A stretch of DNA of 63,779 nt, the filler included, from Kipferlia bialata (taxonomy: Eukaryota), in assembly GCA_003568945.1 (NCBI GenBank). It is 5 parts of 5 records of this genome, joined end to end, with 100 filler letters (N's around TTAATTAATTAA, not from the genome) between each part and the next. Parts side by side here need not be neighbours in the genome. Positions count along the whole stretch, not along the records: positions 1 to 12,716 come from BDIP01001045.1; positions 12,817 to 25,517 come from BDIP01001046.1; positions 25,618 to 38,274 come from BDIP01001049.1; positions 38,375 to 51,027 come from BDIP01001050.1; positions 51,128 to 63,779 come from BDIP01001051.1. One strand, written 5' to 3'. Each line of letters begins with the position of its first letter. The first letter of the stretch is position 1. Made by a program: the position numbers and the translations under genes. The notes under the pieces are model-generated. The model worked only from the letters and a program-made list of their open reading frames with translations. It did not search any database and was not told the origin of the DNA. Below are positions 61 through 53,593 of the stretch, one piece after another.

Positions 61-3000
61 GGTTCAGTTCCACCTGCAGTCCCAGCAGACACTCAGGTAG
101 GAGTCATGTGATGTATGGATATGAGTACCATGACTGTGTTTCACTAAGTAGTAGTGATCAGTCAACCAATTATATAGCTGTCTCTCAGTGTGTCTCCCTA
201 CTCTCCTCCCTCTTGTTGTCTGACCCCAGAGAGATGTCCATCCACCGCAAGAAGAAGACATCCCTGCCCCTCCTCAAGGAGACAAAGGTGTGTTACTTAC
301 TCCACAACCCCCCCCACTCCTTCCCTCCTCTCTCCCTCTCCCTCCATGCCCCCCCCCCTCTCCCCCTCTCTTATGCAGGCCAGGGCCGATGACCTGTTCC
401 ATGCCTCAGTCCCAGACAAGGCTGCAGGTATTGCAGGATATGCATACTTATATATACGTCATAGTATACCCCTCCCCAGATTTCTGTGCATGTATGTATC
501 TGTGGGTTCCCCCCCCCCCCCCCACCCCCAGCTGTGTATGAGGATGCGGCTGGTGTGGCTGCCAAGCTGTACGGCACAGACACATACCACGTGGCCCACC
601 TCCTAGCCTCTGCATCCCTCGCACATGTCTGTGCACACCACTTCAGTGCATCCAGGTGGGTTTACATGTATGTATGTATGTAAGGTGTATATATAGGTTT
701 AGTATGTTGATCTCTTTAGACTTTGATTTTTGGACATCTATTCAATTTCTGACTTGGCCTTGTGTCTCTCTGTTCACCCCCAGACGTCTATCCGGCCAGG
801 CCCTGCGTCTGTACTCACAGACCAAGGGGAAGGTATAGTGGATATGTGTAGATGTATATACCCAGCCCAATACCCACGATGACACGGGCAGTGACATATG
901 TACACGTATATATCTATATGTGGTGTGTTTATACCCTTACCACCCAGGACACCAGGATGCACAGGGCCAAGCTGCTGCACACACGGGGACTGGCACAGGC
1001 AGCGCAGGTATGTGTGCTATAAACACATATATATACTTTTTGATACCTGGCTCTATATACCTTATGTATACGCAACCCTACCCTCACCCCAGGGCATGTT
1101 CTCCGAGGCCGATGTGGATCTGGGCCAGGCCCTCTCCCTATTCCTCCAGGTTTACCCCCCAGAGCACCCATCCGCAGGTAGGATACATTAGTATATGGTC
1201 GTATATTGTATACATGGGAATGCGGAATTGTATGTCTGGGTATCAGTACCAGAGAGTGTGTCATGTTCTTCTCTTGTTTCCCCACCCCCAGTTGTGTGTC
1301 TGGCCAACCGAGGCGTGGTGACACTGGCCAAGTGGGGGGAGACACAGGTGGGTGTGTAGCTGGTTAGAGAGTCCCAACCCACAGTGACATAAGACATAAC
1401 CTCTTCCTTACCCCCTGCCTCACCCCCAGGCTGCAGCCAAGAAGAGGTCCCCTGGCACCAAGAGGCCTGTCAAGAGCATGGTCAGCACAGAGCTCAACAA
1501 GGCCTGCAAGATACTCCGGGTGGGTGGATGCATATAGTATATGTACTTGCGTGTTGCATTGTTCATGCTGTCATTTCTCCTCTATTTCACTTCTCTCTCT
1601 CCTTTAAACCTCAGAGCTCAACAAGGCCTGCAAGATACTCAGGGTGGGTGGATGCCTATGTCATAGTGAGTATATAGTATATACTATTCTCTCTCCCTTT
1701 TAACCCTCAGGAGGTGCTGCACCGAGTCACCAGCCAGTACCCCACCAGAAGACACTCCCACATCAGAGCACTGGCATCGGTGGCACTGGGGCTGGCTCAG
1801 GTATGTACTGTAGTGTGTAGTATGGGGTCTATACTATATTTGTATTGTATACCGCATTTCATCGCCCCCAGCTGCTGTCCGGTGACTATGTCCTCAATTA
1901 TCTACTCTAGTGCTGTATCAGAAGGTATTGACCACTAGCTGCTGTCCGGTGACTATGTCCCCTGTCTGTCCACTGTCAGGGAGGAGCTGGGCAAGGGAAG
2001 GTCCATACCGGCATCCCCACACGCATCAGGTACACTATTCCCCACCTCCTTATTTCCATATGTACAATAATACTATTGTGTCTCTGTACCTCACCCCAGG
2101 TGGTCCTGTAGCACGTGCCGGTGTACACGAGGTGGCAGACTGGGTCACAACGAGGTACATATCTGCATACATGTGTATATTTATACATTTACTATACCAT
2201 ATACATATACATGTATGTGTATAGTATATGCATGAGGTGGCAGACTGGGTTACAACCAGGTATATATGATCATATATATATATATATATATACTTGCATT
2301 TATACACATATATATGAATGTGTATAGTATGTGCACGAGGTGGCAGACTGGGTCACAACCAGGTACATACATATACATGATCATGTATGTATGAATACTA
2401 ACCCCAGTCTCCTGCACATTGAGGTCCAGGCCATGAGGGGTCTCAACAACCACGGGAGTGCGGTGCCTAAGGTGGGTAGGGGAGAGTAGTGATGTGGTAT
2501 ACACTTAGTCTCTCTCTCTCTCTCTCTCCCCCTCCCCCTCACCCCCCCAGGCCCAGTCCCTGGTCAACAGACTCCATGCCTCCCCTGCAAGCCACTCCTT
2601 CTACGCAAACCATGCTAGGGTGGGTAGCACTTTCTTATCGACGTGTACTGATACCTTCCATTCCATGAGTACACACTTGTCCAATATTCCCATACATATG
2701 TATGAATCTAAACCCCCCCACCCCAGGCCATGCACTGCTCCTCGCTGCTGTACCTTGGTGAGTCTTTGTCTGCATGCAGGAAGGAGAGAGAGGGTGCAGA
2801 TGCACTGAGGAGGGGCATCGAGGAGGGACAGGCCATGCTGGGGGAGAGCAGGGACACACCCCTCTCATCCACACCCTGTAGGAGACCACTCCTGCTACTG
2901 ACAGAGGCGGCATCCACACTGCCACTGTTCCCAGGTGGGACTAGAGTATAGTATACCATACATTGAGTGTGTCAGCTGCATGTGGAGTATATTTATGTGT

Positions 3001-4825
3001 ATTCCCTCTCACCCTTAGGAGTTGCTGACCCCCTCGTCCATGCACTGTGTTGCTACAACATTAAGGGTGCAGTGAACAGAGGCAGGGCACAGCTCACAAG
3101 GTGCACATGTGTGTGTATATGAGGATACATCTATTATACTCTTATTCCCGTCTCATCTCCTAGGCTGCAGCGTGTTGGTGCTGCCTGTGATGCTGTGAGT
3201 GAGTCACTACTCATCCAGCGCACCATGCCCCTGCACTCTGTGGGAGGGGGTGTCGCCATCAAGGGAGAGAGAGAGAGAGAGAGAGTGGCAGGCACACTCA
3301 ACCATGCCGACCTGGACAGGGTGCCTAGTGTGGAGTACGGGTCTCCCTCTCGGTCCCAGGTGTATAGGGAGGAGGAGGAGAGAGAGAGGGTGGTGCTGAA
3401 TGAGGAGGGTGCCCTTGACCTGGCTGCCAGTGGTGCTCTGTCCTCCTTTGTGTCACCGGTGTCTAGACCACAGGCACCATCACCTGCAGGTGGGTGTGTA
3501 TGGGTACATGGGGAGAGAGAGAGAAGTGGATGAGCCTATATACTGATGCATATACACTATGCCCCCCCCCCCCCTCACCCAGGCACCACCACTCTTGTCC
3601 CCCGTCACAGGGCACCCGACTACCTACCCACCAGCCACACAGCAAGGCCGTTCCTGGTATGTGTAGTAGGGATATATATAGTAGCACCAGTATAGTACAT
3701 ATGATGTCTCTCCCTGTATACTTACCCCTCCAGGTCCGTGCCCCCCTCTCTGCCTCCACTAGATACGGGGGTATCAAGTATGCTGGGGCATCCACAGTCC
3801 CTGCCATGCTGGTCACGGCAGGTGGGGAAACATATGTGCATATCCCATATATGCACATACACACTATACGTATTCTATATGTATGTGAGACGGCATCTAA
3901 CCCCCCCCCCCCCCTTTCTCTGACCCCAGGTGCCTCTGCCCCTGATTCCAGTCTCGACAGGATCACTAGGGGCACTAGGGCATCAGATGCATCTACTCCT
4001 AGGTATGTGTTGCACCCTCCCTCTCACTCTCGGTGTCTCTCTCTATATGTATATATACGCACCTATAGCATAATGTGTCTCACCCCTAGGTCCAGGGGTG
4101 TGCGTGCCTCCGCTGTGTTCCTGTCCCCCTCCAGCCCTGCAATGCTGGGAGGTGGAGAGAGGGAGAGGGAGAGGGAGAGAGAGAGAGCCCGTGCCATGGA
4201 GGGTAGAGAGACTGATAGGCCCAGGGTCAATGGGGCAGCTGTTGTGCACTCACCATTCAGCTCCAACAGCCTGAGGGTCCTGATGAGAAGGAACACTGGC
4301 GTTAACAAGGAGGTGGGGGGTGTATGTATATATACACTATTCATTTTGTGTTACTCTCGTCCTTAGACTGACCCACAGGTTGTTGCTGGTACCCACCTGG
4401 CCCAGAGCAGTGTCACCTCTAGACTGGGTGCCTCTAGGGGAGGGGGTATGGGGGAGAGCCTGGTATCCTCTGCCCTTGCTGGGTCTATGCACACGGCTAG
4501 GGGTGTGAGGGAGCAGATGGAGCGGACGCAGAGACTGTCGGATAGTGTCAGGTTCACAGTAGGGGAGAGGTATGGAAGGAGTGGTGTCTGGCAGGGAGAG
4601 ACTGAGACACGCGGGGAGGAGGGAGAGAGAGGGGTGGGCGGAGACACTCTGTCCCTGACCGACCTCAGTGGTAGACAGAGAGAGAGAGACAGTGATGAGA
4701 GGGAGGAGAGGGAGATGAAGAGAGAGAGAGACCTAGCCGAGGAGGAGGCCCTGATGCGTGAGACTAGGGCTGTACTAGAGGGACTGAGACAGACACTGGT
4801 GGACACAGAGGGAGATGTAGTATAG
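61..4825 (+). CDS. Multi-exon TPR-like repeat protein with low-complexity/coiled C-terminus; 5' truncated by window edge
   Basis: GT-AG exons spliced by hand give AVYEDAAGVAAKLYGTDTYHVAHLLASAS, RAKLLHTRGLAQAAQ-GMFSEADVDLGQALSLFLQVYPPEHPSAVVCLANRG, resembling kinesin-light-chain-type TPRs; last exon ends ...TEGDVV TAG at 4823-4825. Confidence 0.65.
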
Positions 4826-5109
4826 GATGGGTAGTCAGTGTAGAAGGATTGGTCCATGTGGAGTATCAATGTATGTGGTATGTGTTGTACAATAGAATAT
4901 ATAAATGGTGTTTATGCGCTACCTCTCCAGTATATATATTACCAGAACAACTACGTAAACCTAGTGCCAACAATATCTTGATGAACAACGATTCATATCT
5001 ATTCATTTCACATTCAACAGACTCCACATACACCACAGCAGTGCATGTAAGCAGCACATATCTCTTAGGGGCCCCCTAACCCCTAAACCCCTGGCTCCTA
5101 TACCTACAT

Positions 5110-6684: not shown

Positions 6685-6873
6685 GGAGTAAGAGTGGGGA
6701 AAAACCCCCCCCCCCCCCCTCCCTCCTGACCTTGTCACTCTCTGGGTAACTGTCTCTCTCTCTCTTCTTACTCAGGTCACATGTCTCTCTCCAATGGTGA
6801 CACCCTCTTTTCCATCTCCCCTCTTTATACACAATACTATATCTCATCTAAAGCTGCTCCTCCAAGTGCCACT

Positions 6874-6908
<35 letters not shown>

Positions 6909-6978
6909 TCTTTTAACCTAGGCTACTCTCCCAAGTGCCACTTCATCTCTCTCTCTCTCTCTCTCTCTTCTAACCTAG

Positions 6979-7385
6979 GCTACTCCCCCAAGTGCCACTT
7001 TATCTCTCTCTCGAATGGCGACGCAAGAGATGCACAGTTAGCCACAGACTATCTGATGGACCAGCCCATAGTGGGGATTGATTTGTACGTAAAGGATAAA
7101 TATATATATATGTACATATATATATATATGACATATACACAAGCACTACCTAATGGACCTGCCACTTGTTGGTATTGATTTGTACGTATTCCTCAATCAC
7201 ACCCACCGTCACAATCAAATATTCACTACCCATATATACTCGTGCCACTTGATGATTCACTGCTTATTATGACATATAGATTGATGGTTCATCGGTTATA
7301 CTTTTGAAACATATGTTCAGCTCCCTCTCACTGTAGCGAGTAGCGCCCTGTGTGCAGAAATATACTTTGTGGCGCTACCTCATTC

Positions 7386-7439
<54 letters not shown>

Positions 7440-10400
7440 ACTTCACATGTGTATTGATGTCCCCCTCACTGCAGCGAGTGGCGCCCTGTGTTCAGAAAGG
7501 GAGGCTTCCACCCCATATCAATCATCCAGGTAAGAGATTCCATCTCTCTCTCTCTCTCTCTCTCTTGTCTCTATCCTACCCCAGATGTCCCCTCTGGACC
7601 AAGTAATTTAGTATTTACATTAGTATATATGTCTATTCATAGCTTATGTCCTTAGTATCATATGATATATCCCATTCTTCCCCTTCCCCTACTCTCTTAC
7701 CCCAGATGTCCACTCTGGACCACGTCTTTGTCTTCCATGTCACCATAGGTATGTATGCATATATGTATGTATGTATGTATATAGTTGTTCCGTCTCACCA
7801 TAGGCACAGGGGAGAGAGTGGCCAGGGAGAGCCCAGTCTTCACGAGACTCCTGACTGATACAGAGGGTACGGCCAAGAGTGAATATGCGTAGTTACTGCT
7901 CACATACTGATGGTATATCAATGTAGGCATCATCCGTCAATCATGTCTCTATCCTTTTTGCTCTTGCCGTATCCTAACTGTCTAGGCCCCAGACCTATGC
8001 TCCTGATCAAGGACCCACACGGGGACAGGTGAGTGGGATGTGTGTCTATGTAGTTACCCTACATTGTATATTTATTTGCGTGGCGAGACGGTATACTATT
8101 GTAGATGTTTCTAAATCAAGGACCCACACGGGGACAGGTGAGATGTCCATATTGCTGGGATTGCTGGGATGTGCATGTTCTTCCTTATGCTGAGATATCT
8201 GTATAGTGAGTTATATGTGTATGTCCTTCCTTTACCCCCAGACCCATGTTCCTCAAGTCCTTTGGAATTGAGTTACCCTCTGTCACATGCATACACGGGG
8301 TGCTCAACGGAGTCAGGTGTGTTATTGTATATTGACATACGTGTAGCATTTGTGTTCTAATACTCACCTCAGTATGGGCACCCTCAATTGGTGTTTATAC
8401 TGCATATTCCTATAGTGCATATATATGCTATATGCTATATAGTAGACATGGTATATTAAGTCATTGTATACTCACCCAGCATGGGCACCCTCAATGTGGG
8501 TGCCATATGCAAGACACTGGGGTTAGGTGGGAGTCAACTAGAGTATTGTACACTACATCCACCCGGGACATGTGTTCAACCCTAGTTCCGTCACATACAC
8601 ATAGTACCTTACCATATGTACCATTTTTGATATACTGACCCCCAGCCTCCAACACCCCCAAGAACAAGAGGATAGCCTGCAGTGACTGGAGCCAGTGGCC
8701 ATTGACAAGGAAGCAGCAGGCATGGCACACACACACATGTATACATATATACATATATATATATATACATCAATACACCAAGAAGCAGCAGGTTGTGAAC
8801 CATGTCTATAATGTAGTCCCTCTCTCGCTTTGTATATATATCTTACTCTAGTTATATGCTGCCTTCGATCCCTACTTCAACATCCTGTGCTGTGTCATTC
8901 TGGCCCGTGTCATAAGGGAGAGGGGGGAGAGAGAAGATACTATTAGGGACAGGGGGGAGGCAGAGGGTACTCCCAATGCAACGTCAACCTCTCTATGCAG
9001 ACAGGAGGAGTCAGGTGCACTTGCCTCTCTCAATGCCCAGACACATGGAGCATTCTCGTACCAAGGTGAGACTGTCTGGAAGTAGAAATAGTTTCATTAC
9101 TCTTTCCGGTTAAAGTGAGAGTCTCTCTCTCAGTACTTTGGATAGTAGCAGACACCGCATTAATGCGCCTTCTTCTCACATGAAGCTGTAGTTAATTGGA
9201 TGTATAGTCTAGTTACTTTGATGTATGTCACTCTCCTGTGTACATTCCACTCACACTCAGCTGTTGTAGACACCGTGAGAGACAGGCTGTCTGCCTCAGA
9301 CTATGAGGTCACAGATGCCCTGGGGCAGGTCATACCTAAGGTAGACACAAATATACACACATATATATACGTTATAGTACTATATATCTTCTTAATTACA
9401 TCTGGGAATACTCAGAGGGTGTGTGCGTATATTTGACACCTGCACCTATTTGATGCATATATATAGTGTTCTAAAAGTGTCTGTACTTCCCCTAGTGACA
9501 CCTGCCTCTCCTGTGCCACTCTATATATTGTCTCTCCCTTTCTATATGAATACCCCCTCGTGTTAACTCCAGCCCCTCCTGTCCGAGTACCAGTATGGCA
9601 GGGTCAAGTGCGGGTACTGTGAGGCAGGGACAGTGGGGGGTGTAGACACCCTAGGTGGGGTACAGGGTCATCACTGGCAGTATAACACTACATGTATACC
9701 CAAAAACTCTATTTGTCTCTTACCCCAGTGCACATGGAGCTCTATCACCCCAAGGAGGCGGAGAGAGAGAGGGAGGCAAGACAGGGAGGGACATGCCTCA
9801 TACAGGTACAGAGTGTAGTTAGAGCTGTCTTGTGGTATGTGCATGTATGCCTCTCACCCCAGATGTCCGCTGCCTGTCTGCTGCACCTGCCCATGAGCAC
9901 AGAGGATATAGACAGGTATGTGTATGTATGTGTCTGTATATTTGTTGCAAACTCTTGGATATACTCAGTGTAAACCACAGTGGATATAGCTAGGTATGTA
10001 TATTTATGTGTATGTATAAGAATACATACCAAACAGTGTATTAGCCTTGTTACCATTCACCCTAGGATCACTGAGGAGAAGCTGCCCGTTGTTATACCCG
10101 CCTCCAACGCCACCCTACTCAGACTGGTTCCAGAGGGTATTAGACTGCGGGTGCAAGGTACATATACTAACTATATATATATTAATATGCTATATATGCC
10201 ACCTATGTTATATATGTTGAGACTGGTGCCAGAGGGGATCAGGGAGAGGGTGGAAGGTACACAGTGATGTGCTATACATACACAGTACCTTATGTTTAGA
10301 GTATATAATGTTCTGAATGTATATAAGTAACATTTTACCCCCAGGCTGTGAGCGTCTATCCACCCTAATGTGTGTAATGCCTATGGATGCATTTACAATA

Positions 10401-11295
10401 TTAGTAGTTGTATTTAACCCCAGGCTGTGAGCGTCTGTCCACCCTGTGCCGGTCTGTCCTGGTCAAGCACTGGCGGTGTCAGGGGGTCTTTGACGTCATA
10501 GACCTGTGCCTCCAGTCAGGGTTTGCAGAGGAAGGTACAGAACAGATCCTATAACAGATTAGTACTCTCCGGTCCAATGTGTATATATGTCCCTTCAGAG
10601 TATCTCCTCACCCCCAGCCTGGACTGCCTCCATCACCTGGGACCTCACAGGCTCAGGATATGGCCCAGGTGAGTGTAGCTATTGCTATTTTTTGTTGGTG
10701 TCCGTCTGATGATTGCCTTGCCTTTGGGTACTTCTCACGTATGTGCCAGTCGATGCTTGTACTATGAATATATATATATATATGTATATAGAAATCTGCA
10801 GATTGAAATCAATGCCCCACCCCCAGATGAGCGCCCTGCCTCATTATACGTATATTTGACTATATATATATTGACTATATATATATTGACTATATATTAA
10901 TTTGTCTTACACCCAGATGAGCGGTCTGCCTTTGAGTCCGACCTGGCAGAGGGGGCAGTCTCAGTGGTGGACCCATTCCTTCAGTCAGGTAGTAGCAGTC
11001 AAAAGAATAATTCAATATAGTATGTTATGTTTGAGTATGTCCCTTTCTCACCCCCTAGCCCAGTGCCCAGTCGAGCACTTCCCAGGGTATCTCTTTGCCA
11101 AGAGGGCAGAGGAGCTGGCTCAGGTACATATGCTGTCATATAGCATGTATACAATGCAATTCAACAATAGGGTAATTGACTTTGGGCGATTAGTCATTTC
11201 TTATCTTCTCCCCTCTGCTATATTCACACCAGACCATGAAGGAGAGGCGTCCCATTAGGACTCTCAAGGTGGTGAGACACAGAAACAGGAAATAG
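6979..11295 (+). CDS. DEDDy 3'-5' exonuclease (WRN-exo/EXD2/Mut-7-like) with downstream C2H2 zinc finger; start probably in gap
   Basis: Spliced: IVGIDFEWRPVFRKGGFHPISIIQMSTLDHVFVFHV (ExoI DxE), KDPHGDRPMFLKSFGI (ExoII), KNKRIACSDWSQWPLTRKQQLYAAFDP (ExoIII YxxxD); CGYC-x12-HMELYH; probable stop TAG 11293-11295. Confidence 0.85.
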
Positions 11296-11452
11296 AATGA
11301 GTAGACAATCGAGTTCGATTGTGTGGGAAACTAGCGGCTGAGAATGAATTGATTGTGGCGCAAAAACTCTACACCCCTTATTGGTGTCTATTTATGGTGA
11401 CGAGATCTGGCTTCTTGGGCATGTGCCCTGCGACAGAATTATATACAATAAA

Positions 11453-11697
11453 ATGGGATTTGCTGATAGCCTGCCATCTGCCCTTGCTGCCTCTGCTCTG
11501 AAGGTGTTTAGGAAGGTTCGGGCACCAGTATTGTATAGATATTATTTTGACACCGATGGATCACGATTGACCATTCATGACTGACGGTAACCACCTGTTC
11601 AGATACTGATACCAGAAGCCCCTGAAGCTTGGCTGTTCCCAGTCTGTGCTCTATGCCTTCAGGGACGACATCGACTCAGGGGCTCTGGATCTGGGAG
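11453..11697 (+). CDS. First two exons of an unidentified gene (MGFADSLPSALAASALKVFRK-KPLKLGCSQSVLYAFRDDIDSGALDLG), cut at a poly-C tract
   Basis: ATG 11453, donor after 11515, acceptor CTGATACCAG before 11616, donor after 11697; no MAD2 similarity. Confidence 0.4.
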
Positions 11698-11899
11698 GTT
11701 GGTGCTTTCACTACAGTATACAGCTGTATAATTCGATTCACTCTACATAGCGTAATGTCCTTATGTGTGACATGTATGATGCATCCCAATGCCATCCCCC
11801 CTCCCCCCCCCCCCCCCCCCCCCTCTTACCGATATGTTCGTTGTTACCAGGCCGATGCCTTCTCTCTCTCCCTTCCCCTCTCTCTCTGCTTACTCTCAG

Positions 11900-12366
11900 T
11901 ATCCTGTACCTACGTGGTGTGTACCAGCCTGATGCCTTTGAGAGGGTGCCTAAGTACGGAGTGCCCATGCAGATTGCCAAGGACCCCGGTCTGATGAAGT
12001 ACCTAGGTAGATACATATTGATGTCTATATAATTGCTTGTGTGTGTGTTTACTCGGAAAATACAACCAATCTCCCCCACCCACTCATTGGAGATATATAT
12101 ATTTGAATCCCTCCCCCCCCCCCCCCAGCTGCTTTGTCAACTCATACCTTGTCTCTGTCTGTCTTTCCCTCTCTCTCTCTCTCTCTCTCTCTTTGTATTA
12201 TCTTACCCCAGGCACTGTCCTCCAGAATGTGAGTGAGTGAGTATAGTATGTCTCTATCTCTAGGTATATATATATCTTTGTCTCACCATAGGCACTGTCC
12301 TGCAGAATGTGATTCTCTCTCTCTCTCTCTCTCTCTCTAACCTTAGGCACTGTCCTCCAGAATGTG

Positions 12367-12414
<48 letters not shown>

Positions 12415-12508
12415 CTTAGGCACTGTCCTCCAGAATGTGAGTGAGTGGCTCATGGCTGGCACAGTGCAGAAGCTGGCCATTGTCATGACATCAGAGGCCA
12501 CAGCTGAG
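11900..12508 (+). CDS. MAD2: Spindle checkpoint HORMA protein MAD2, two internal exons (11900-12006, 12420-12508)
   Basis: SILYLRGVYQPDAFERVPKYGVPMQIAKDPGLMKYLGTVLQNVSEWLMAGTVQKLAIVMTSEATAE matches the MAD2 consensus SILYQRGIYP..F..V.KYG...L..YL......WL....VQKL. Confidence 0.9.
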
Positions 12509-12663
12509 GTATATATATACATTGTATATAGTATAATCATATAGTATACTATATATGTAATGTCTGTGTATGTTGGCACAGTGCAGAAGCTGGCCATAGT
12601 CATGACCAGTGAAGCAACAGCTGAGGTACATATTATATATATAGTTTTGTATAGTGCAACGTC

Positions 12664-12899: not shown

Positions 12900-15800
12900 C
12901 TGACCCTAGTAAGAGTCAGGATGACCAGCACTATACATTCTCTCTCTCTATCTATGTACTAGTGTATATATATATACTTCCTCACCCCAGCAAGAGTCAG
13001 GATTACCAGCACCTATTGAAGAGGATACTACTCCTATATATATATATATATATATATATTTGTGTCCTCACACCCAGCAAGAGTCAGGATGACCAGCACA
13101 TGTTAAAACAGTTTACTATATCATATATACTGTATCATATTCTCTCTCTCTCTCTACTAGTATATCTATTATTCCTGACCCCAGCAAGAGTCAGGATGAC
13201 CAGCACCTGTTGAAGAGGATAGCCCCAGCCAACCTATTAGTACTACCTCAGGTACTGTCATGCTGAATATACCATATACATGTCTTATATACCGAGTTGT
13301 ATCGTGTATACAGATATCCAGACCCAGCAGTCCTCTTTGCCCATTGTAGTATACTTAGTGGATACTATGTACATTAGTGTTATACATTTGTATGTATGTG
13401 TTTGTACTGACTGTCCAGGCCCAGCAGTCCTCTCTGCCCTTTGGCTGTGAGAACTTCACACACCCTCTAGGTAATGGTGGACAATTACATACATGTATCA
13501 CTATTAGCGTGGTAATGTACATATGGGTAGTTTATATAGTGTACCCACAGAATTCTATCCTATATGCATGTAATACACTCTATATTTGCGTACGACTCTA
13601 TTACTCTATTGCCATTAGTTATCATGAACGATTGTATGTACTAATCTATATTACTCTATATTACTCAATATTACTTCATTGTTTATTAATACAAATTGTA
13701 TATATAGTATCAATTCCAACCCCCAGGCATCAACGTGACCAAGCACTGCCCCCTGTGTGTGGTTAATGCCACCAACAAGCTGCCAATCAGATCATTCCAG
13801 CTCACTCTGGAGGTATATTGCCTGTATTGCACTGTATAATGTGTAATGTAGTAGAAGAGTCCCTGACACCCAGGACTCCACCAAGCTCTTTGCCTATATG
13901 GCCATTGTCAATCTTTCTCTCTCTCTATCGCTCTGTGGTGTAATATTGTACCTAACCCTCAGGACTCCACTAAGCTCTTTGCATATGCTGCCATTGTCAA
14001 TGTGGCTGTAGATATGTATATATATATTCCATATACCTATGTTATACTATGTTATACAGAGAAGTGGGAGGAGTCTAAATCCTCAGGACTCTACTAAATT
14101 GTTTGCCTATGCGGCCATTGTCAATGTGGCTGTGGCAATATATACATGTATCACTGTATTCAATGATCTAGTGCATATATGTATGTGTGTGTGTGTATAA
14201 TAGTATTCCTTATAACCAGGACTCTACTAAGCTCTTTGCCTATGCGGCCATTGTGAATGTGGCTGTGCCNNNNGGACTCTACTAAGCTCTTTGCCTATGC
14301 GGCCATTGTGAATGTGGCTGTGCCCACATGCAATGAACAGACAGGGACAGAGAGACTGAGGGAGCCAGGTACATAGTGGATACATATGTATATTAGATCA
14401 TTAATACATATATACATATATGTAATTGTTTATGTGTATATATATGGCTTTGCCCACATGCAATGAACAGACAGGGACAGAGAGACTGAGAGAGCCAGGT
14501 ATATATGTGATATATATAGTGAATGTTAGAGTGTATATATATGTATTATATATGGCTGTGCCCACATGCAACGAACAGACAGGGACAGAGAGGCTGAGGG
14601 AGCCAGGTATAGTATGTATATGTATTAGTATATGACATAGTGTAGGTATATACTTGTGGTAACAAGGTTATGGCTCAGTCCATAGATGAAACGAACAGAC
14701 TGGGAGAGAGAGGCTGAGAGAACCAGGTTGGTATGATTATATATACGGGGAGTTCTTTATGATGGACGTTGTAAATTTGGTCTTATCAGTTTCCCTTGGA
14801 GTGGAGTGGAGTGATTAATATGTCCTCTGACCCCAGGCAGCATGTCGGACACCTTGAGCACTGGCCTGGACTCACTAGGTATGTTTAAGTATAGTATATA
14901 CATAGATATGTAATATATATATATGCATATATATATATATATCTCCGCACTGGACTGGACTCACTAGGTGTGTTTATGTACAGTATATTAGTTTGCTATA
15001 GTATATATATATATATATATATATATATTCACTCACATTATTATCTCAGCACCGGACTGGACTCATTAGGTACAATGGGCACTGTATAGTATTGTGTACA
15101 TTGATTGTATGATGGATTCCAATGTATATATGTTGTCACATATTTACTCAAATTATGCTTTGAAGCCGAGTCGCAGTGCCACTGCTATGATACCATTCAT
15201 ATATGTATATGGCATAAATACATTGCAGATCTACTATTTATACACTCATACCACTGTTTATACGCTAACTCTCAGGCATCGAGGCCGAGTCCCAGTGCCA
15301 CTGTTATGATGGCATGCAGGGAGAGGGGGAGAGAGAGACTGGGAAGGAGGATGACCTCTACTGTGCACCCTTTGCCCTGGTGTTATACAGTAGGTATACA
15401 TATATTGACATATATATAGTAATAGAGATACCATTGTATATGTAGTTATGTGTATGTATATATGAAATGTGTACTGGTGTTATACAGTAGGTATGTATGG
15501 ATATGTACATATACACCATATAGATATATAGATATACAGTAGGTATACATATATACATGTTTAGAACTCTATCCATATATATATATATGTATATATATAG
15601 AGATACCATTATGTATGCAGATATGTATATATATACATATGAACTCTGGACCCTTTGCACTGGTGTTATACAGTAGGTATGTGTGGAAATATAGTTATAC
15701 ACCATATAGATATATAGATATACAGTTGGTATACATTGACACATACTAATATACTTTTACTTGTACATCGTATCTGTCTTACTCCAGACACCAGTTCCAC

Positions 15801-16322
15801 GATACAACCATATGTATATATACAGTGGGTATATACATTGGGTATATGCAGTTGGTATATACGTTTATGCGCATACGTGTAGTACCAATCTCACCCTAGG
15901 CACCAGTTCCACGAGACATTCAAGTACATACGACCCAATTAGATATACCCATATATACTTTCGTCATTGTGCTCTTTTCTGACTAATATCAATATAACCC
16001 CCTAGGCACCAGTTGCACGACACATTCATAAATAATAGTATATATATAATTGTACCCGTGTGCTATCTACCAACATTGTACCTTTGTATCAACCTTAACC
16101 TAGGCACCAGTTCCACGAGACCTTCAAGTCCATCCTGGACACAACTGTCAAGCACGTCGAGAATGAGCCATTGTATGCATTTGACAGGTAACGGCAGTAA
16201 CATATATTATATATATATAGAAACACATATTCATATAGTTTCTATCTATGTCTCTACATGCTCATTGTATGCATTTGACAGGTAGGATATCAATATGTTT
16301 GATATGTTTCACGCCCTGCACG

Positions 16323-16354
<32 letters not shown>

Positions 16355-16420
16355 ATATATATGTATATACCCTCATTTCAGACTGGTTGAGTTTGCCCAT
16401 GATCTGTTTGACGCCCTGCA

Positions 16421-16451
<31 letters not shown>

Positions 16452-17252: not shown

Positions 17253-17297
<45 letters not shown>

Positions 17298-19415: not shown

Positions 19416-19451
<36 letters not shown>

Positions 19452-21245: not shown

Positions 21246-21313
<68 letters not shown>

Positions 21314-21365
21314 TATTTGTGTAGACCCAGGTGGCCATACCCACACTGACGGACAAGAGGTATGG

Positions 21366-21405
<40 letters not shown>

Positions 21406-22568: not shown

Positions 22569-22604
<36 letters not shown>

Positions 22605-23263: not shown

Positions 23264-23312
<49 letters not shown>

Positions 23313-41081: not shown

Positions 41082-44000
41082 TGTTGCTATTCTTACACGT
41101 CATATTCCTCTCACTTACTCTCTCTCTCTCCCTCTCTTCAATTCTTACTCTAGTGCTGGAACCTTCTCTTCTCCCTTGCTGCACGTACCCACCCTCTCTC
41201 TCTCTCTCTCCCCCCTCTCTCTAGGCTCTAATACTAGCTATGGGACCTTCTCTTCTCCCTTGCTGCCCGTACCCACCCACTGCTGAGGGGGGCACAGCAC
41301 AGGGGAATGGAGGTATTGACATATATGTATATACATATGTGTATATAGGGAGAGAGATAGAGAGAGAGAGAGAGTACCCATCCCCTGCTGAGGGGGGCAC
41401 AGCACAAGGGCATGGAGGTATTCATGTAAATGTGTGAATGCATATATATATGTACGTGTGAGTTTCTTCTCCCTGACATTCCTAGGTCTTGGACTGTGAT
41501 TAATCTTCTCTACTTTTCACAGATTTAGATTCTCTCTCTCTCTCTCTACACCCTTATTGTCAGGTCTTTGACGACGGTCCCTCCCTGCCCATCCTGTCCC
41601 AGAATGAATCTCTCTCTCTCTCTCTCTCTACACCCTTAATGTGCAGGTCTTTGACGATGGTCCCTCTCTGCCCATCCTGTCCCAGAATGAATCTCTCTCT
41701 CTCTCTCTCTCTCTCTCTACACCCTAATAGCAGGTCTTTGACGATGGTCCCTCTCTGCCCATCCTGTCCCAGAATGAGAGTGCATCAGTCACACTGACAA
41801 GGGCAGAGATTGGATGCATACTAGGTATACATATACTACATATACTCATATACATAGAGATAGGGTGCATTATAGGTGCTATATTGTCTATAGTGTATAT
41901 AGTATATAGTGTTCATACTATATATGTCCCAGAATGACAGTGCCTCACTGACACTGACCAGGGCAGAGATAGGATGCATCTTAGGTACTGTTACTATTTG
42001 AACTGGTATAACTAATGCATATCTATTGGAGTATACTCTGTGTGTATGTCAGAATGAGTGTGCCTCAGTGACACTGACAAGGGCAGAGATTGGATGCATT
42101 CTAGGTATATATACACTATTATAATTGTATATATATGTATATATATGTATTTATACAGTGCCTCACTGACACTGACCAGGGTAGAGATTGGATGCATTAT
42201 AGGTATATACACAGTATATATTGTAAACTGTGTGTTTGTTGTAGAACAACTATGCCTCACTGACATACTATGTATATATACTACCATAATAGTATTCATA
42301 TATATATACATGAATATGTCCGAGTATTTGTAGTACTGTATATATAGTGAGGTGTGTGTGTGTGTGTATATATATATAGAGAGAGAGAGAGACAGAGACT
42401 GACACTGACCAGGGCAGAGATTGGGTGTATAATAGGTGTCTAGTGCGAATCTATTGGAGTATATACACTCTCTGTGTATATCAGAATGAGAGTGCCTCAG
42501 TCACACTGTCACGTACAGAGATTGGCGTGTATACTGGGTTTGTACTATTGCGTTTACGTGGTTAGAATCTCTTTTGTCGTTGCATTAATACTATTGTATA
42601 CTCTCTATTCTATACTCCACCTTAGTATCAACCTTGTGGATATGGAGCATCCCCCCTCTCTCTCTCTCCCTCTACACCCTTATTATCAGCCAATGCGTGT
42701 CTGCTTAACCTTGTGGCTGTCGAGCATTCTCTCTTTCTCTCTCTCTCTCTCTACACCCTTATTATCAGCCAATGCGTGTCTCCTTAACCTTGTGGATGTC
42801 GAGCATGAGCAGAGCATCGGATCACTGGCACTGGGGGACATATTCACATCATCCCATAGGTATATACACACACGTANNNNNNNNNNNNNNNNNNNNNNNN
42901 NNNNNNNNNNNNNNNNNNNNNNNNNNNNNNNNNNNNNNNNNNNNNNNNNNNNNNNNNNNNNNNNNNNNNNNNNNNNNNNNNNNNNNNNNNNNNNNNNNNN
43001 NNNNNNNNNNNNNNNNNNNNNNNNNNNNNNNNNNNNNNNNNNNNNNNNNNNNNNNNNNNNNNNNNNNNNNNNNNNNNNNNNNNNNNNNNNNNNNNNNNNN
43101 NNNNNNNNNNNNNNNNNNNNNNNNNNNNNNNNNNNNNNNNNNNNNNNNNNNNNNNNNNNNNNNNNNNNNNNNNNNNNNNNNNNNNNNNNNNNNNNNNNNN
43201 NNNNNNNNNNNNNNNNNNNNNNNNNNNNNNNNNNNNNNNNNNNNNNNNNNNNNNNNNNNNNNNNNNNNNNNNNNNNNNNNNNNNNNNNNNNNNNNNTATT
43301 GACGTCAGGGTGGCTGTGGAGCGCGTTGTCTGCCTGCTCCTCTACTTTGTTACTCTCCTTCTAGACCCTTCATTCTCTCTCTCTACACCCCTATTGACGT
43401 CAGAGTTGCTGTGGAGCGTGTTGTCTGCCTGCTCCTCTACTTTGTCTACTGGGCTGACCCCGACCACTCCATGCTAGGTAATCTCTCTCTCTCTCTCTCC
43501 GTCTACACCCTTTCATTGAGATATATGTCTACTGGGCACACCCCGACCACTCCATGCTAGGTAGGGTTTCTCTCTCTCTCTCTTCCATCTACCCCCATTT
43601 TGTAGTCAAGTGACCATGGCATGTGTGCCACACACACACACCCTCTCTCTCTCTACACCCTTAATACACGCAGATAATTGCCTGTGTGATACACACTCTC
43701 TTTCTCTCTCTCTCTTCTTCTACACCCTTTACACCAGGTGACAATGGCACTTGTGACACTGTGACATTTGAGAGAGTGGCACAGGGCATGGAGGAGGTAC
43801 GATCTATCTATCTCTCTCCCTATATATATATACTATAAGAAGAGGGAGATGTATATATAGAGTGGAAGAGAGAGAGAGACTGTGACCTTTGAGAGAGTGG
43901 CACAGGGGATGGACGAGGTACTGTGTTATCCATATATAATATACTATATGTATACATTAATGTACTTAGGAGGTAGAGAGAGAGAGATACACCGTGACCT

Positions 44001-47000
44001 TTGACGGGGGTAATATTCATTTGTAGATACAATAGTGAATATATATTTGCGTACTATAGCATAGAGATATATATATATATATACACTGTGACAAATGAGA
44101 GTTATTGTAGTATTATACTGTTGTTGTAGTGTTATAAGAGTTATAGTAGCAGTATAGTGTAGTTGTAGTGATATAGTGTAATATTATATGTATTAATAAG
44201 TGTGTGAGAGAGTCATTCCTGTCGACTCCTTCTATTCACCCTCCAGATGCCCAAGTGTTTTATCTACACCCTCTATTCATGTCTTCACCCTCTATTCACC
44301 CTCCAGATGCCCAAGTGGGAGGAGAGCACCAGGCCCATTGACACAGCAGGGGTCAGGTGCACTATTATGACAGCTATATAGTGTAATTTATAGTAGTGTA
44401 TATGTATATAGTATTGTATGTAATATGTATACCTATATATTTGATGGGAGGATAGCACCAGGCCCATCGACACAGCAGGGATCAGGTATTCATGTATTGA
44501 TACAAACACACATACACATATCTATATATATAGGTATTTATATATATGTATAAAGAGAGAGCACCAGGCCCATCGACACAGCAGGGATCAGGTATCAAGA
44601 TATATATACTCATATATATATATGTATACAGATATATATATATACATACGTCATATGTGTACAGAGAGAGAGAGAGAGCACCCGGCCCATCGACACAGCA
44701 GGGGTCAGGTATACTGATAGATAGATATACATAGATATATGTGTATACAGAGAGAGAGAGAGAGAGAGAGAGCACCAGGCCCATCGACACAGCAGGGGTC
44801 AGGTACATTCATTCACACAAACAATATATATTCTTACTATAAATATAGGTATGTATATGTATAGAGAGAGACAGCACCAGGCCCGTTGACACAACCGGTG
44901 TTAGGTATCAAGATATATATTGGAAGACATAGAAACTCATATCTATATATGAGGTGTATACTTCTACATATTTTCTTACTACATCCTTATATATATACAG
45001 CCCATCGACACAGCAGGGGTCAGGTATAGTGATTGATGTATATATTTATATATATATTTGTATATATATGTGTATACAGAGAGAGAGAGAGAGGGCACTA
45101 GGCCCATCGACACAGCAGGGGTCAGGTATACAATTCCGACAGTGATACATTGTAATATATATGTATGTATGTATTTACATACTGGTATAGTATTGTAATT
45201 CTCTATAGTATTTGCTAATAATAAGGGTCCACTCTGGTGTCATGGAAGAGAGCAACTGCATAGGCTTTGCAGACTTTGCCAACAGGTAGGGAGTCTCTCT
45301 CTCTTTCTCTCTGTCTCTCTGTCTCTCTCTCTTCCCTTCTCCACTCGGATACCACTTGCCTTCATGATACCACTTCTTGTGCCTCTCATATTATTGTGTA
45401 TGTGTTGATACACTATACACACAACCGCAGTACATACTGTGTCTGTCTCTTGTATTAATACCAGAGATATCCACATTCACTGTCTACACCCTTTGTATCC
45501 TATCCATCTCTCCTTCTATACCCATAATCCCTCTCCTCTGCCCTTTATCTCAGGGACATCCACATCCACTGTGTCATAGGATCAGCAACACAGGAGGAGG
45601 TGAGTCATATATGTACAAATGAGACCATTGACATTTGTGTGTATCTCCCTATATACTAACTCATATGTATATATATATATGGTGTGTGTGTCATTGGATC
45701 AGTAACACATGAGGAGGTATGTAGTATGTGATATAGTCATCTACTAGGCCTAGTAGGTTCTAACAGGTTCTCTTCCTGTTGTCTCAGGGCATTCGTCGGT
45801 CTCTCATACTCTCTCTCTCTCTCTCTCTATATTTATATAAATATATTTCTACTCCTTATTCCAGGTTCTCTTCTCTTGCTGTCCCGAGGCCTTTGTCGGT
45901 CTGTTGCTCTACCCCAGACTCCTAGACGGCACAGATGGGAGCAAGAGTGAAGTAGGTTAGTATGTATATGTATTAATATATACAACATGTACACCCATTA
46001 GTCTTTAGGGGGAGTCTGTATACCCAAGACTCCTTGATGGCACAGATGGAAGTAGCAGTGAAGTGGGTGAGTAAGTATATATATATATATAGTATATATA
46101 CAAATATATATATGGGGTGTATGTATATACCCCAGACTTCTAGATGGCACAGATGGGAGCAAGAGTGAAGTAGGTTAGTATACATAGTATATGTATATAT
46201 AGAATATATATAGTATATTTATATATACATATATATTATATATATCTATATTGTATATATCATATATATACATATATATTTATATATACATATCTATATG
46301 GGGTGTATGTATATACCCCAGACTCCTCGATGGCACAGATGGAAGTAGCAGTGAAGTCGGTACGCCATTGCTACTGCTAAACAATCAATATGTGTCTTTC
46401 TTGTATTGATACTCACATACTCTCTTTCTCTCTCTCTCTCTCTCTCTACACCCATTAATCACAGGTGTTATTCGCAATGCCAGGAGGGTGTGCTCCTACA
46501 CAGGATACGACAGGACATTCACGTGAGTGACAGTTTCTCCCACTCTCTCTCAATCATATACTATATGTATATAGTGTAGTTCATATTATTTATATATATA
46601 TATGTATATGTACTACTCCTACACAGGATACGACAGGACATTCACGTGAGTCACTTTATGTATGCACATATTCTATATATATACATTCATAGTATGGTCA
46701 TATATGAATATCATCGTATCCTAGACGGGATACGACAGGACATTCACGTGAGTCTCTCTCTCTCTCTCTCTCTACATACTATATGACCCATATTCCAGTG
46801 CTGGTTCAATATCTATCAACCCTTGTCTCCTATGACACTTCTTTCTTTTTCTCTCTCTCTAGACCCTTATACCAGCGCCGGACCCCCTCTCTCCACCCTT
46901 GTGTCCCATGACATCCTGGTCTATGACGCATGCTACAGTGGACAGTTCTACAGAAGGAACCTCGATAGGTAAAGGATCAATTGATTGATTGATTGTCATC

Positions 47001-49342
47001 AATACATTGATTAACAGTAATCAATCTACTTGTGTATGACGCATGCTACAGTGGACAGTTCTACAAGAAGAACCTAGACAGGTATAATCAATTTATCCAT
47101 TTTCATCAATTCATTGATTGATAGTAATCAGAAGGACCCTAGACAGGTAGAAATCATGTTCGAGAGAGTATCATCAATATATTGATTGATTGTCATCAAT
47201 ATATTGATTAACACCCAGGGACCTCTACAAGGCCTACCTGGGATTCAGAGCAGTGCCAGACATATCCACTGGAAAGGTATAGTCACACATGTATACACAG
47301 TGTATATATGTAATATATATGCAATATGTATGTATATTTTATAGTATACCTCGGGTTCAGAACAGTGCCAGACACATCAACCGGAAAGGTATCTCTCTCT
47401 CACTCTCTCACTCTGTCCTAACTTCTCTGATGACTGGCCCACACTATTGGTCTCTATGCCTAACCGGCTCTCTCCACTTCTCCCTTACTTCTCTCCCTCT
47501 CTGCCTACACCCCTAATTCCCAGTGGGGCTGCGGTGTCTTCAACCTTGTTTCTCTCCCTCCTCACACTAACTTGTCCCCTACACCCCTATTTCTCTCCCT
47601 CTACACCCCTATTTCTCTCCCCCTACACCCCTATTTCTCTCCCCCTACACCCCTAACTCTCAGTGGGGCTGTGGTGTCTTCAACGGGGTGCCACTCTACA
47701 AGTTCTTGACACAGGTAGGAGTTAATGTAGCAATATGTGTGCACACCCTATTACATGCACTTCACATATGGATTTAGTATGCGTACGATGTATACTATTG
47801 TACTCATACCCCAACCCCAACTCCTGGCCTGTGGTGAGAGTGCCAGGATACCTCCCGTTCTCTCCCTCCCTCTCTCTCTCTATCTATATGTATATATATA
47901 TCTATGCTTACCATGCACTGACCCCAGCTCATGGCCTGTGGTGAGACCGGTACCAGGATGGACTACTCGGCATTCAAGGTACATACTTGATAAATATATA
48001 TATATATATATAGACACTGAGGGATACTACATAGTAACGTAGATACTATATGAACTCATATGTGTTCATATCTGGTGAGTGGTGCCAGGATGGACTACTC
48101 GGCATTCAAGGTACATATAATGTATATATATATGAACTATGTGTTGAGTGTTACATATGTCACTCTAGTGTGTACGCGACCCTACTTACACACTATAATA
48201 TAGAAAGATAGAAATGTAAATGTATGTACTGTATATGGAACATACAATTCCTATGAATATATGTGTGTATAGTATAAGGAACATGCAATTCCTATTCAGC
48301 TATTCAATGGATGAGTACCAGTGCATCATGGTGTCTGATCAGTATTCACACATTAATTGTGTTAACATCATAGGACCATTGAACCATGTACATGGATTAC
48401 TCTCTCCCCCTATCTCCATATATGTGCATGCATGTATATTTTATTATGTATCAGGACGAAGACCACTGCAAGATGTGCAAGGACTACGTATATACATATC
48501 ATGCGTACTCATATCTATTTTGTTCTTATATGTATATCTAACAATAGGACGAGGACCACTGCACCATGTGCATTGATGCCCTAGAGTGCATCGAGGGGTG
48601 GAACGAGGGGCAGGGCATGACGGTATGTATATATATGCATATAGATATAGATTTACTGTGTAGCTTTATACATACATGTATAGATGTATATATATGGGCC
48701 CTAGAGTGCCTCGAGGGGTGGGACGAGGGACAGGGCATGACGGTACGTACACTATACCTATACCTATATATTTCATGTGATATGTATGCTGTACATAATG
48801 TGTTTAAGTACCTCGAGGGGTGGAACGAGGGACAGGGCATGACGGTACGCATATATATAGTATACATATACATTATACGCTATTGTACTGTATACATATC
48901 CTCCCACACCAGGTTCGCTCCCTCTACACCTTACATTATCCTAAGATAAACAGTAGTGCACCAGCATATTGGTTTCTGATTGTACAGGTTGGCTCCCTCT
49001 ACACCCTCATTCTGGATGTGGTACAGGACCACAAGGAGTGGACAAGGGCATCGCAGTTCAAGGAGGTTATATATATATGTATATATATATACATTTATAT
49101 ATATATATGTGTATATATTGTGTGTATGTGTAACCGAGGACTGGGCAAGGGTACTATACACACACCTGTAATATATATATGGATGTGGTTATGCTCTGGC
49201 ATCTCTTGTATACTCATGTTGTTAAGACTCTTGTCTATCTATAGAGGACTCACTCCACTGCAGTTGTCTCCCCCTACATCCCTAATTCTCTCTCTACACC
49301 CTTTTATCGCAGGCCATGATGCAGAGACTCAGGGGTGAGTGA
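39413..49342 (+). CDS. PARG: Poly(ADP-ribose) glycohydrolase (macrodomain PARG), apparently complete
   Basis: LPILSQNESASVTLTRAEIGCILANACL; GFADFANRDIHIHCVIGSATQEEVLFSCCPE; ARRVCSYTGYDRTF; RDLYKAYLGF; ISTGKWGCGVFNG..YKFLTQLMA; stop TGA 49340-49342. Confidence 0.92.
39730..48960 (+). repeat. Intronic stacks of partial exon copies (PARG gene)
   Basis: Up to seven tail+donor copies per intron (41855-42537; 44446-45125); head copies e.g. 41564, 41647. Confidence 0.95.
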
Positions 49343-51547: not shown

Positions 51548-52859
51548 GCCCCAACCCCTGAGCAGATCTGTGATACCTGTCAGTTCGAGGCTGAGATGGT
51601 GCAGGTATCTCTATATATACTATACATGAAAATATATATATTGTAAGAATGTACATATGTAAACATATAAAAAGTAAAGAATGACCATCTGTGACACCTG
51701 CCAGTTCGAGTGCAGGTATATAGAAATACATGTATATTAACTATATCTACAGTATGTATCTCTATATATGGGACTGACACCTGTCAGTTCGAGGCTCAGA
51801 TTGTGCAGGTGAATTGAGAGTATACATATAGAGAGTAGCATATTAACCCCCCCCTCTCTCTCTCTCTCATGTCCAAAGCCCCTTATTCCAGACATATCAT
51901 CTCTGACACCGATCGTGATGTATATATATCCCCTAAGCCCTCGTTATTATATATATATATATATATCCTTAGCCCTTACTCCAGATCATCATTGAGGCTG
52001 AACATGATATCTTTCTCTCTCTCTCTCTCCCTCTAGCCCCTTACTCCGGATCATCATTGAGGCTGAGCCCGTTATATTATATAGTAATATATATATACTA
52101 TAGTATATGTATATGTCTATATATCCCCTCACTCATTTACTATAATACATGTATATGTGTATCAAGCCCCTCACTCCAGATCATCATTGAGGCTGAGCCC
52201 GTTATATTATATAGTAATATGTATATACTATAATATATGTCTATATTTATATATCCCTCACTCATTTACTATAACACATGTATATGTGTATCAAGCCCCT
52301 CACTCCAGATCATCATTGAGGCCGAGCCTGATATCTCTCTCTCTTTCTCCCTCTAGCCCCTTACTGTATGTATATTTATATATATCTAACCCCTCACTCC
52401 AGATCATCATTGAGGCCGAGCCTGATATATATATATATATATCCTAAGCCATCGTCATTATATATAAATTTATCTAGCCCCTCACTCCAGATCATCATTG
52501 AGGCCGAGCCCGACATGTCTGCAGATGACGTCAGGGCACTGCTCGAGGACGAGTGCTACAAGACTATGGATAACGTATGTACATGTATATATATAGTGCT
52601 ACTTGGCCAGGTATATAATATATATATTATTCCACGAGACAATGGAGGGATTCAAGTGGACAGACATATATACTCTAGATACAAGGTTGACATCTCTCCA
52701 ATATACATGTGTCAACTGTGATACTTGCCTCACCGAGTCCTACACCCTTTCCTACACCCTAACTCTCTCTTCTGCTGCACCCTTATTCCCAGGACCTGGG
52801 TATCCAGTACTGCATCAACCTCTACGACCAGATGGTGGATCTGGTGGAGCAGGGTATGG

Positions 52860-52899
<40 letters not shown>

Positions 52900-53593
52900 C
52901 CTCACGTTCTATCAATGACATCCCACTGCTCTCTCACCCCCAGGCTACACCACCGACATTGTCTGTGAGCTCATGGGAAAGTAAGTGGAACATGCAGTTT
53001 AGTGAATGTATATACATAGTGGGTGATGGATCATGTATCCTATGATACTGACAGTGTCTGTGAGCTCATGGGAAAGTAAGTGCATCATACATTAATATAT
53101 ATGTGTGTGTATCTATATATATGTATATTGATAATGGGAGGTGACTCACCGATACTATTAGACTGATACCGACATTGTCTGTGAGCTCAAGGGAAAGTAA
53201 GTGCATACTCAAACATATTATTTAGTGAATGCATATACACAGTGGGTGATGGATCATGTATACTATGATACAGACAGTGTCTGTGAGCTAAGCGGAGATT
53301 AAGAACATACATACACTCATATATGAGAGTGGTTCTCATGTAGTGAGGTATGTGTGGGTGTCATGTATATGCATCGGTATGAAACTGTATTGTTCTGGTG
53401 TCAGTGCATTGTATAGTTACGTGATCACAACCTCTACAATCGCATTGTGCCCATTTCCATTTCTGTAACTCCATTGACACCACGTGTGCTGGGAGCCATT
53501 TTTAGTCATATATTTACATGAACAGATTGACATTACTAGTACGATTGATACATAACGGGGTGTATGTGTGTTACTAACGCCAGGTGTGCTTAG
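51548..53593 (+). CDS. Saposin-B-like domain protein (SAPLIP), 5' truncated
   Basis: Spliced APTPEQICDTCQFEAEMVQIIIEAEPDMSADDVRALLEDECYKTMDNDLGIQYCINLYDQMVDLVEQGYTTDIVCELMGKCA* has the six-Cys saposin spacing; last exon is only 10 coding nt (53584-53593). Confidence 0.85.

Follow-up and report, generated by a model that had tools for sequence, protein, structure and literature searches.

The closest described counterparts of the exon-derived repeats discussed here are the 'mirage' minisatellites of amphioxus, which are found in Adh3, the globin genes BflGb6 and BflGb9, TnC and PGBD5. According to the accessible parts of the two reports (PMC3087553, PMC3902484), they represent tandem duplications over 5' and 3' exon-intron boundaries, many of which keep their AG or GT while splicing remains undisturbed; they occur in a handful of genes, their units are 81-100% identical and evolve in concert within clusters, and unequal exchange has been proposed as their source in this highly polymorphic host. 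The word 'synonymous' does not occur in PMC3087553. Here, we describe a similar arrangement in the protist Kipferlia bialata: in a window of 63,779 nucleotides (assembly GCA_003568945.1), consisting of five scaffolds joined by spacers, 44% of the modelled introns carry partial copies of an adjacent exon, often in stacks. All counts in the following refer to this window.

Repeats across splice junctions are also known from single loci. In CBS 844ins68, for instance, the decoy sites stay silent. This insertion is a 68-bp duplication, as given in the accessible part of PMC2630376; likewise, the 37-bp variable-number tandem repeat (VNTR) in intervening sequence 7 (IVS7) of human F7 crosses a splice junction, and its decoys are silent with the most upstream donor being used (PMC1557585, in part). 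Unlike the Kipferlia stacks, these two cases are single loci with near-identical units and hold no archive of silent-site differences. Two further systems share individual features: the excision of internal eliminated sequences (IES) in ciliates relies on direct repeats (pointers) beside the removed sequence, and recursive splicing involves stacked splice signals. Ciliate excision differs in that no DNA excision is seen in Kipferlia among the joints listed for our contigs.

With the mirages, the Kipferlia stacks share boundary-spanning units, the duplication of both boundaries and, in the gene where it could be followed, undisturbed splicing. They differ in their abundance, in intron parts that are mostly unalignable, in a strong bias towards silent differences and in the type of host; moreover, unlike the homogeneous mirage units, the copies are as distant from each other as they are from the exon. 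A literature search, whose reach did not include Canestro 2002 and Gao and Lynch 2009, returned no report of such stacks in Kipferlia nor of a genome-wide, silent-biased form, and the string 'duplicat' does not occur in the main text of the Kipferlia genome paper (PMC5874029). What is new here is the density of the copies, their star-like silent divergence and the choice of splice sites by position; the mirage arrangement itself was already known.

Half-exon stacks along five scaffolds

With a self-trained gene finder and manual curation, we modelled 11 plus-strand genes with open reading frames, comprising 159 exons and 160 introns. The models cover neither the genes beyond 59 kb nor a gene on the minus strand at 5.1-6.1 kb; self-alignment of the window gave no near repeats in either region. 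One gene encodes a DENN-domain protein: in a protein search, its exon matched a single entry, P0001 ('hypothetical protein KIPB_004749 [Kipferlia bialata]'), whose DENN domain is confirmed by Pfam and which gives an exact spliced match to the DENN exons, with the innermost AG and GT used at nearly every stack. Apart from this gene and a weak LRR match, the gene names used here are our assumptions from motifs.

Exon-only queries were aligned locally to the flanking introns, and at a score of at least 26 this yielded 155 partial copies, compared to about 3 expected by chance from the same search against distant introns. The copies lie in 70 of the 160 introns and derive from 68 of the 159 exons. 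A preliminary description of this DNA had placed them in most genes on all five scaffolds. None of the scaffolds is indeed empty (19, 61, 14, 51 and 10 copies, in order), but the distribution is uneven, with copies in 7 of the 11 modelled genes, 122 of the 155 in the DENN, PARG-like and saposin-like genes, and none above threshold in the LRR gene and three small genes. The half-exon stacks are thus confirmed as real and pervasive, but uneven among genes. The main features are as follows:

1612..1643, plus strand: tail copy of exon 1430-1519 with an acceptor (at 1615, 14.2 bits) and a donor, a putative whole 29-nt pseudo-exon
1872..2362, plus strand: first gene, in which exon 1939 has one head copy and exon 2100-2154 has two tail copies
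6781..12625, plus strand: gene with a 3'-5' exonuclease-like motif (presumed name), 15 copies around its exons
12911..25458, plus strand: DENN-domain gene (P0001), 61 copies at 24 of 32 modelled exons, the innermost AG-GT units being the intact exons
14218..14273, plus strand: assembly artefact at a scaffold gap of 4 N, where 52 nt are repeated without any difference; excluded from the copies
19153..19992, plus strand: example stack of three heads, the intact exon 19498-19602, two tails and one head of the next exon
23039..23125, plus strand: head copy and intron, with the following acceptor and true exon head absent from the window
29741..36199, plus strand: long helical-repeat gene and ABC-transporter-like gene (presumed names), 14 scattered copies
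38853..39043, minus strand: decayed tail copy (about 38853-38900, GT kept, score 34) lying downstream of the first exon (about 38980-39043)
39800..49289, plus strand: PARG-like gene (name presumed from a motif), 51 copies at 17 of 21 modelled exons
44445..45125, plus strand: largest stack, in which exon 44307-44356 is represented by seven tail copies, at least five of which start at a (GA)n junction
51687..53296, plus strand: saposin-like gene (presumed name), 10 copies, including five heads before exon 52491-52574 and three tails after exon 52944-52980

As described before, heads lie upstream (65 copies) and tails downstream (80) of the intact exon; the remaining 10, including one weak match on the wrong side, are internal fragments of the exon. 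Stack sizes likewise range from 1 to 7 per exon side, with 57, 14, 13, 1, 2 and 1 sides carrying 1, 2, 3, 4, 5 and 7 copies, respectively, and the minus-strand example given previously (38848-39043) is real, albeit decayed. Copies adjoin only their own exon: six non-adjacent and seven inverted matches are weak or of low complexity. Their median length is 34 nt and their median identity 90%. Introns, which make up 38% of the window, grow by about 107 nt per copy (r 0.90), and the repeat unit extends from about 35-40 nt of exon across the splice site into about 70 nt of intron; therefore, what is duplicated amounts to half an exon, the adjoining splice site and the greater part of an intron. Each of the 145 boundary-spanning copies contains exon sequence and the position of a splice signal, and the dinucleotide itself is kept in 79 of 80 tails (GT) and 52 of 65 heads (AG).

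For divergence and breakpoint tests, four misregistered heads and the 10 internal matches were dropped, leaving 141 copies. The claim that each copy lacks one splice site applies to 126 of these, while in the other 15 the breakpoint provides a further site that matches real ones in strength, most clearly in the copy at 1615-1643. The copies contain 11 stops (null mean 14.6), and 15 of their 16 indels shift the frame.

The polarised stacks had been proposed as a candidate for an undescribed system of exon copying or turnover. Their polarity is no evidence of a dedicated system, but the geometry of tandem duplication combined with selection, which makes dedicated machinery unnecessary, and it is the arrangement of the amphioxus mirages (PMC3087553). 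When a duplication spans the acceptor, only the downstream copy continues into the exon, and the partial copy therefore ends up upstream; when it spans the donor, only the upstream copy follows the exon start, and the partial copy therefore ends up downstream.

Assembly and splicing of the DENN gene

The DENN stretch was compared with contigs assembled separately from the read run X1. This run is possibly the source of the window's own DNA, in which case the contigs are a re-assembly rather than an independent sample. The eight listed contig pieces (500-1096 nt) have 0-1 other letters and a depth of 399-431, with copy-carrying stretches at the same depth as copy-poor ones, and they bridge at least 22 of the 61 breakpoints by at least 31 letters on each side. 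The arrays are thus very unlikely to be misassembled haplotypes. An excised form is absent among the joints listed for these contigs, which drop rare forms. Two further runs with the same species label but from another sample, X3 and X4, gave one and no matching contigs, respectively, a yield with no bearing on strain divergence, and the contigs that cover the stretch come from one sample.

Two assembly errors were found at the repeats. The spurious 52-nt repeat flanking the gap at 14270 contains the true acceptor of exon 14222/14275, and the stretch 14170-14269 fits two places. At 23122, an acceptor and exon head appear to be lost through assembly collapse: a DNA back-joint links 23122 to 23036 at a depth of 554, an RNA joint links 23078 to 23123, and the missing acceptor would have 9.5 bits. 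Given this collapse, the stacks are under-counted if anything. The deposited P0001 reads through the collapse (23039-23168) and lacks exon 23126-23239, which the RNA contig splices; stacks and assembly errors mislead annotation.

Splicing was followed in the DENN gene with the run X2, taken to be RNA on account of the GT-AG joints between exons in its contigs; only stretches with RNA cover were counted as evidence. Two X2 contigs link the DENN exons through such joints, show a single version free of other letters, and skip 29 copies in 15 introns (10 judged by joints or adjacent record positions, 5 by record length). In the example stack at 19153..19992, for instance, position 19602 is spliced to 20059. 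The sites in use are the first donor and the last acceptor, i.e. the innermost ones. Decoys are not weaker: decoy donors score 6.2 vs 5.8 bits and decoy acceptors 10.6 vs 9.8 bits, and the copy is at least as strong as the real site in 43 of 79 and 23 of 51 cases, respectively. Splice choice by position points to exon definition.

These data also bear on the earlier idea that the copies are still coding, which is not supported, given that they are skipped in mRNA contigs and carry stops and frameshifts. The same applies to mutually exclusive or alternative exons, which most copies could hardly form without a second site of real strength; the copy 22907-22948, which has both AG and GT, is skipped in the RNA contig as well. 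Ratchet points of recursive splicing were considered and rejected on sequence grounds, as tail ends score a median of -9.1 bits as acceptors, like real exon ends, compared to 11.8 bits for real acceptors; 4 of 77 reach real acceptor strength.

Divergence and origin of the copies

The mismatch rates between copies and exons are 0.066, 0.050 and 0.214 at the three codon positions (chi-square p 2e-52), and 283 of the 454 changed codons keep their amino acid. The preliminary description was thus correct in calling the divergence mostly synonymous, and also in regarding neutral decay as too nonsynonymous to account for it: the synonymous share is 0.62-0.64, as opposed to 0.26 when the same changes are placed at random, 0.31 when trinucleotide context is matched and 0.33-0.42 in simulations in which a duplicate starts out identical and decays next to an exon under constraint. 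Accordingly, the ratio of nonsynonymous to synonymous differences per site (pN/pS) between copy and exon is 0.159 (bootstrap 0.12-0.21 over 65 exons), whereas simulated decay of identical duplicates gives 0.53-0.60 and never less than 0.40 in 160 simulations. For the innermost copies alone, pS is 0.283, pN 0.043 and pN/pS 0.15.

The copies are also equidistant. Their pS is 0.298 among each other vs 0.295 to the exon, and still 0.279 for pairs with a shared breakpoint; 4 of the 105 longer copies are identical to the exon, where 2.6 would be expected from one shared divergence and 23 from steady birth with exponential ages. Taken together, silent bias and equidistance suggest that most of the path from copy to exon ran through selected coding sequence, and along different lineages, i.e. 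alleles. In rough arithmetic, the pN of 0.047 (copy-exon) and 0.070 (copy-copy) leaves 0.023 of decay per copy, and about 0.024 of replacement and 0.27 of silent divergence between the donors, or about 0.33 synonymous substitutions per site (dS).

Silent changes show a GC/AT balance (130:120) like that expected between two functional sequences, while replacement changes lean towards AT (84:45; p 0.016), as in decay. Heads without AG at the expected place have a pN/pS of 0.54, compared to 0.13 for those with AG (4 of these 13 heads are misregistered), and outermost copies are more diverged than innermost ones (p 0.02-0.03, 31 stacks). Exon parts with 0-1 differences often carry unrelated intron flanks; in general, the flanks of only 28 of 145 copies are clearly closer to those of their own exon than to those of other exons (z>2). 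Lastly, no tree accommodates 21 of the 48 informative site pairs. As a side observation, silent divergence peaks next to the splice site (87/201 in the first 10 nt, 63/214 in the next 10 nt; p 0.004) with a flat pN, which may reflect reduced allelic exchange beside unalignable introns or local mutagenesis.

The breakpoints themselves offer hints as to how the copies arose. Of the 141 copies, 62 have junction flanks with a dinucleotide period, compared to 25% of random intron 8-mers, and the period of the flank continues 2.08 nt into the copy, compared to 0.57 in the null (maximum 1.00). Microsatellite content is 0.156 in introns with copies vs 0.000 in those without (p 1e-8); across 13 gene segments, microsatellite density and copy number show no correlation (rho 0.22, p 0.47). 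Within stacks, breakpoints are shared in 35 of 98 pairs vs 13% by chance. Neither a shared motif nor an inverted repeat was seen at the breakpoints.

We consider it probable that the stacks are non-coding half-exon duplicates produced by microhomology-driven template switches, and that their silent divergence stems from recombination among highly diverged alleles. The initial event would be a template switch or unequal exchange at microhomology shared by an intronic dinucleotide repeat and a stretch of the exon that resembles such a repeat. Selection would eliminate the other outcomes (duplicates of the whole exon or within the exon, and deletions), such that half-exons ratchet up, and since splicing relies on the donor that comes first and the acceptor that comes last, as seen in the DENN gene, the copies would be close to neutral. 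Between homologues with unalignable introns, the exon would be the sole homology in unequal exchange or one-sided repair; a new half-exon might then derive from a different allele, or an older copy might stay in place while its adjacent exon is exchanged for that of a different allele. Once a copy exists, homologous unequal exchange could expand or collapse the stack. The copies would subsequently decay through stops, frameshifts and loss of AG, with outer copies presumably being older. Each copy would thus be a piece of a different functional allele, and the stack a decaying archive. Of the mechanisms proposed in the preliminary description, an archive of diverged alleles formed at intronic microsatellites therefore fits best, and constant expansion and collapse may contribute.

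Work on other organisms lends this route some plausibility. In the accessible parts of the respective reports, fornicates are described as lacking Ku-type end joining and Rad51A and as having two paralogues of Dmc1 (PMC8516963), which is mismatch-tolerant; in the hypervariable fungus Schizophyllum commune, crossovers fall in exons (PMC4209137), and silent diversity within a population reaches up to 0.20 (PMC4576712). Schizophyllum provides the population setting that an allelic origin needs, with the difference that diversity was measured there and is inferred in Kipferlia; half-exon stacks are not mentioned in these parts of the two reports. By analogy, this repertoire and exon-biased crossing-over make the allele route plausible, but do not show it. 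With less confidence, we extend it to a broader picture, in which the introns may form a genome-wide fossil record of alleles: Dmc1-only, Ku-less repair would recombine haplotypes with about 30% silent divergence and ratchet the partner's half-exons into introns, a single homozygous genome would disclose cryptic sex and record-level diversity, and a reduced spliceosome would select exons by position among decoys of equal strength.

Several points weigh against the allelic origin. The implied dS exceeds the silent diversity in Schizophyllum, so that record diversity or the mixing of cryptic lineages is needed. No second allele or strain was seen in the DNA contigs, in the single protein match or in metagenomes; a single differing letter in 12.6 kb of contigs argues against a second allele in the sample. 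Copy-private changes are only 43% silent (59/137), and some units are near-identical including their intron part (e.g. 41531-41777, 92%), which indicates same-allele slippage as well. A pN gradient falling towards the splice site was not found, and hence there is no sign of refreshing from that end. The microsatellites at the junctions may have grown after copying, and tree incompatibility may be homoplasy. Finally, splicing was checked in a single gene with RNA contigs that drop rare forms, and the gene models other than that of DENN were built by gene finder and curation only.

Among the alternatives, rotation or conversion with indirect selection fares best, even though we think it unlikely. 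Here, copies would be born identical and returned to the working exon, by collapse or gene conversion, at a rate sufficient for replacement changes to be purged while silent ones accumulate. This agrees with the low pN/pS, the shared breakpoints and the reticulate site patterns, and with a loss of GT in tails below the 3-7 cases predicted by decay, an argument weakened by the fact that end-less tails may sit among the five downstream 'internal' matches. Yet, frequent exchange should homogenize silent sites and leave many identical young copies, of which few are observed, and stops and frameshifts have not been purged. It would also need a very large population, and would thus imply high diversity, too.

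Considerably less probable is an ordinary mirage-type tandem duplication within one lineage, followed by neutral decay, with the silent excess arising from later substitutions in the functional exon. Geometry and polarity fit fully, the differences private to the exon are silent in 26 of 30 cases, and the modest silent share of copy-private changes and the greater age of outer copies are as expected. However, this scenario predicts the pN/pS of the simulations and a peak of identical copies; instead, the ratio is about 0.16 with no such peak, and even the innermost copies show the silent excess. The bias that a single lineage could build up in this way falls short by a factor of about three.

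A dedicated system, be it programmed DNA excision, cassette conversion or an RNA-level copy-choice with the copies as alternative coding pieces, is very improbable. Intact splice signals and amino-acid-preserving divergence, with conservative changes and a tail copy at 12574-12625 that has nine silent differences including TCA/AGT for Ser, could be read in its favour. The copies are present at even DNA depth, though, with no excised form among the joints listed, RNA contigs give a single version, breakpoints show no motif or inverted repeat, and stops and frameshifts are common; programmed excision and copy-choice, both proposed earlier, are not supported.

Donation by paralogous genes instead of alleles, which would equally produce silent-biased differences, is at least as hard to maintain: it would take as many as seven donors per exon, all diverged from one another, the copies adjoin their own exon only, and the DENN exon matches P0001 alone, with no shorter relatives in the search. 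An assembly artefact from mixed haplotypes or strains, to which the errors at 14270 and 23122 and the possible non-independence of X1 might point, is scarcely credible in view of the bridged breakpoints, the 0-1 other letters and the even depth.

Implications and individual loci

Boundary repeats were formerly curiosities of a few genes, while in Kipferlia they are a main force on gene structure, given the intron content of the window and the growth of introns with each copy. Kipferlia is a free-living relative of Giardia. If the copies do stem from alleles, a single genome would be enough to read the silent diversity, recombination and history of sex of a free-living fornicate, and isolates would be expected to carry different stacks. 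Independently of their origin, an organism whose spliceosome is reduced (87 of 174 proteins searched; PMC6679479) and whose introns naturally harbour hundreds of decoys as strong as real splice sites makes for a direct test bed for exon definition.

Units with both sites, such as 1615-1643, might represent exons or introns in the course of being gained. Judged from its sequence, this copy (region 1430-1711) is a candidate exon gain; included alone it would shift the frame, while together with an alternative donor at 1523 it would yield an in-frame peptide repeat.

In the gene with the exonuclease-like motif, 8646-8720 is likely a GC-AG intron, with a GT donor on the tail copy at 8777-8791. Two repeats resembling an acceptor plus exon head at 39524-39610 have no matching modelled exon and possibly mark an unmodelled or lost one. 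The acceptor regions of the PARG-like gene (39400-49340) contain a recurring TACACCC element before the AG of different introns, and gene-specific acceptor motifs common to different introns are found there as well as at 51380-53600, which suggests exchange among introns or a local signal. The introns at 53800-63779 are nearly free of microsatellites and copies, except for one short tail at 56015, and thereby differ sharply from the first 2.2 kb of the same scaffold. Within this region, two similar gene starts at 61190-61260 and 63640-63779, about 2.5 kb apart, are tandem paralogues and not half-exon copies.

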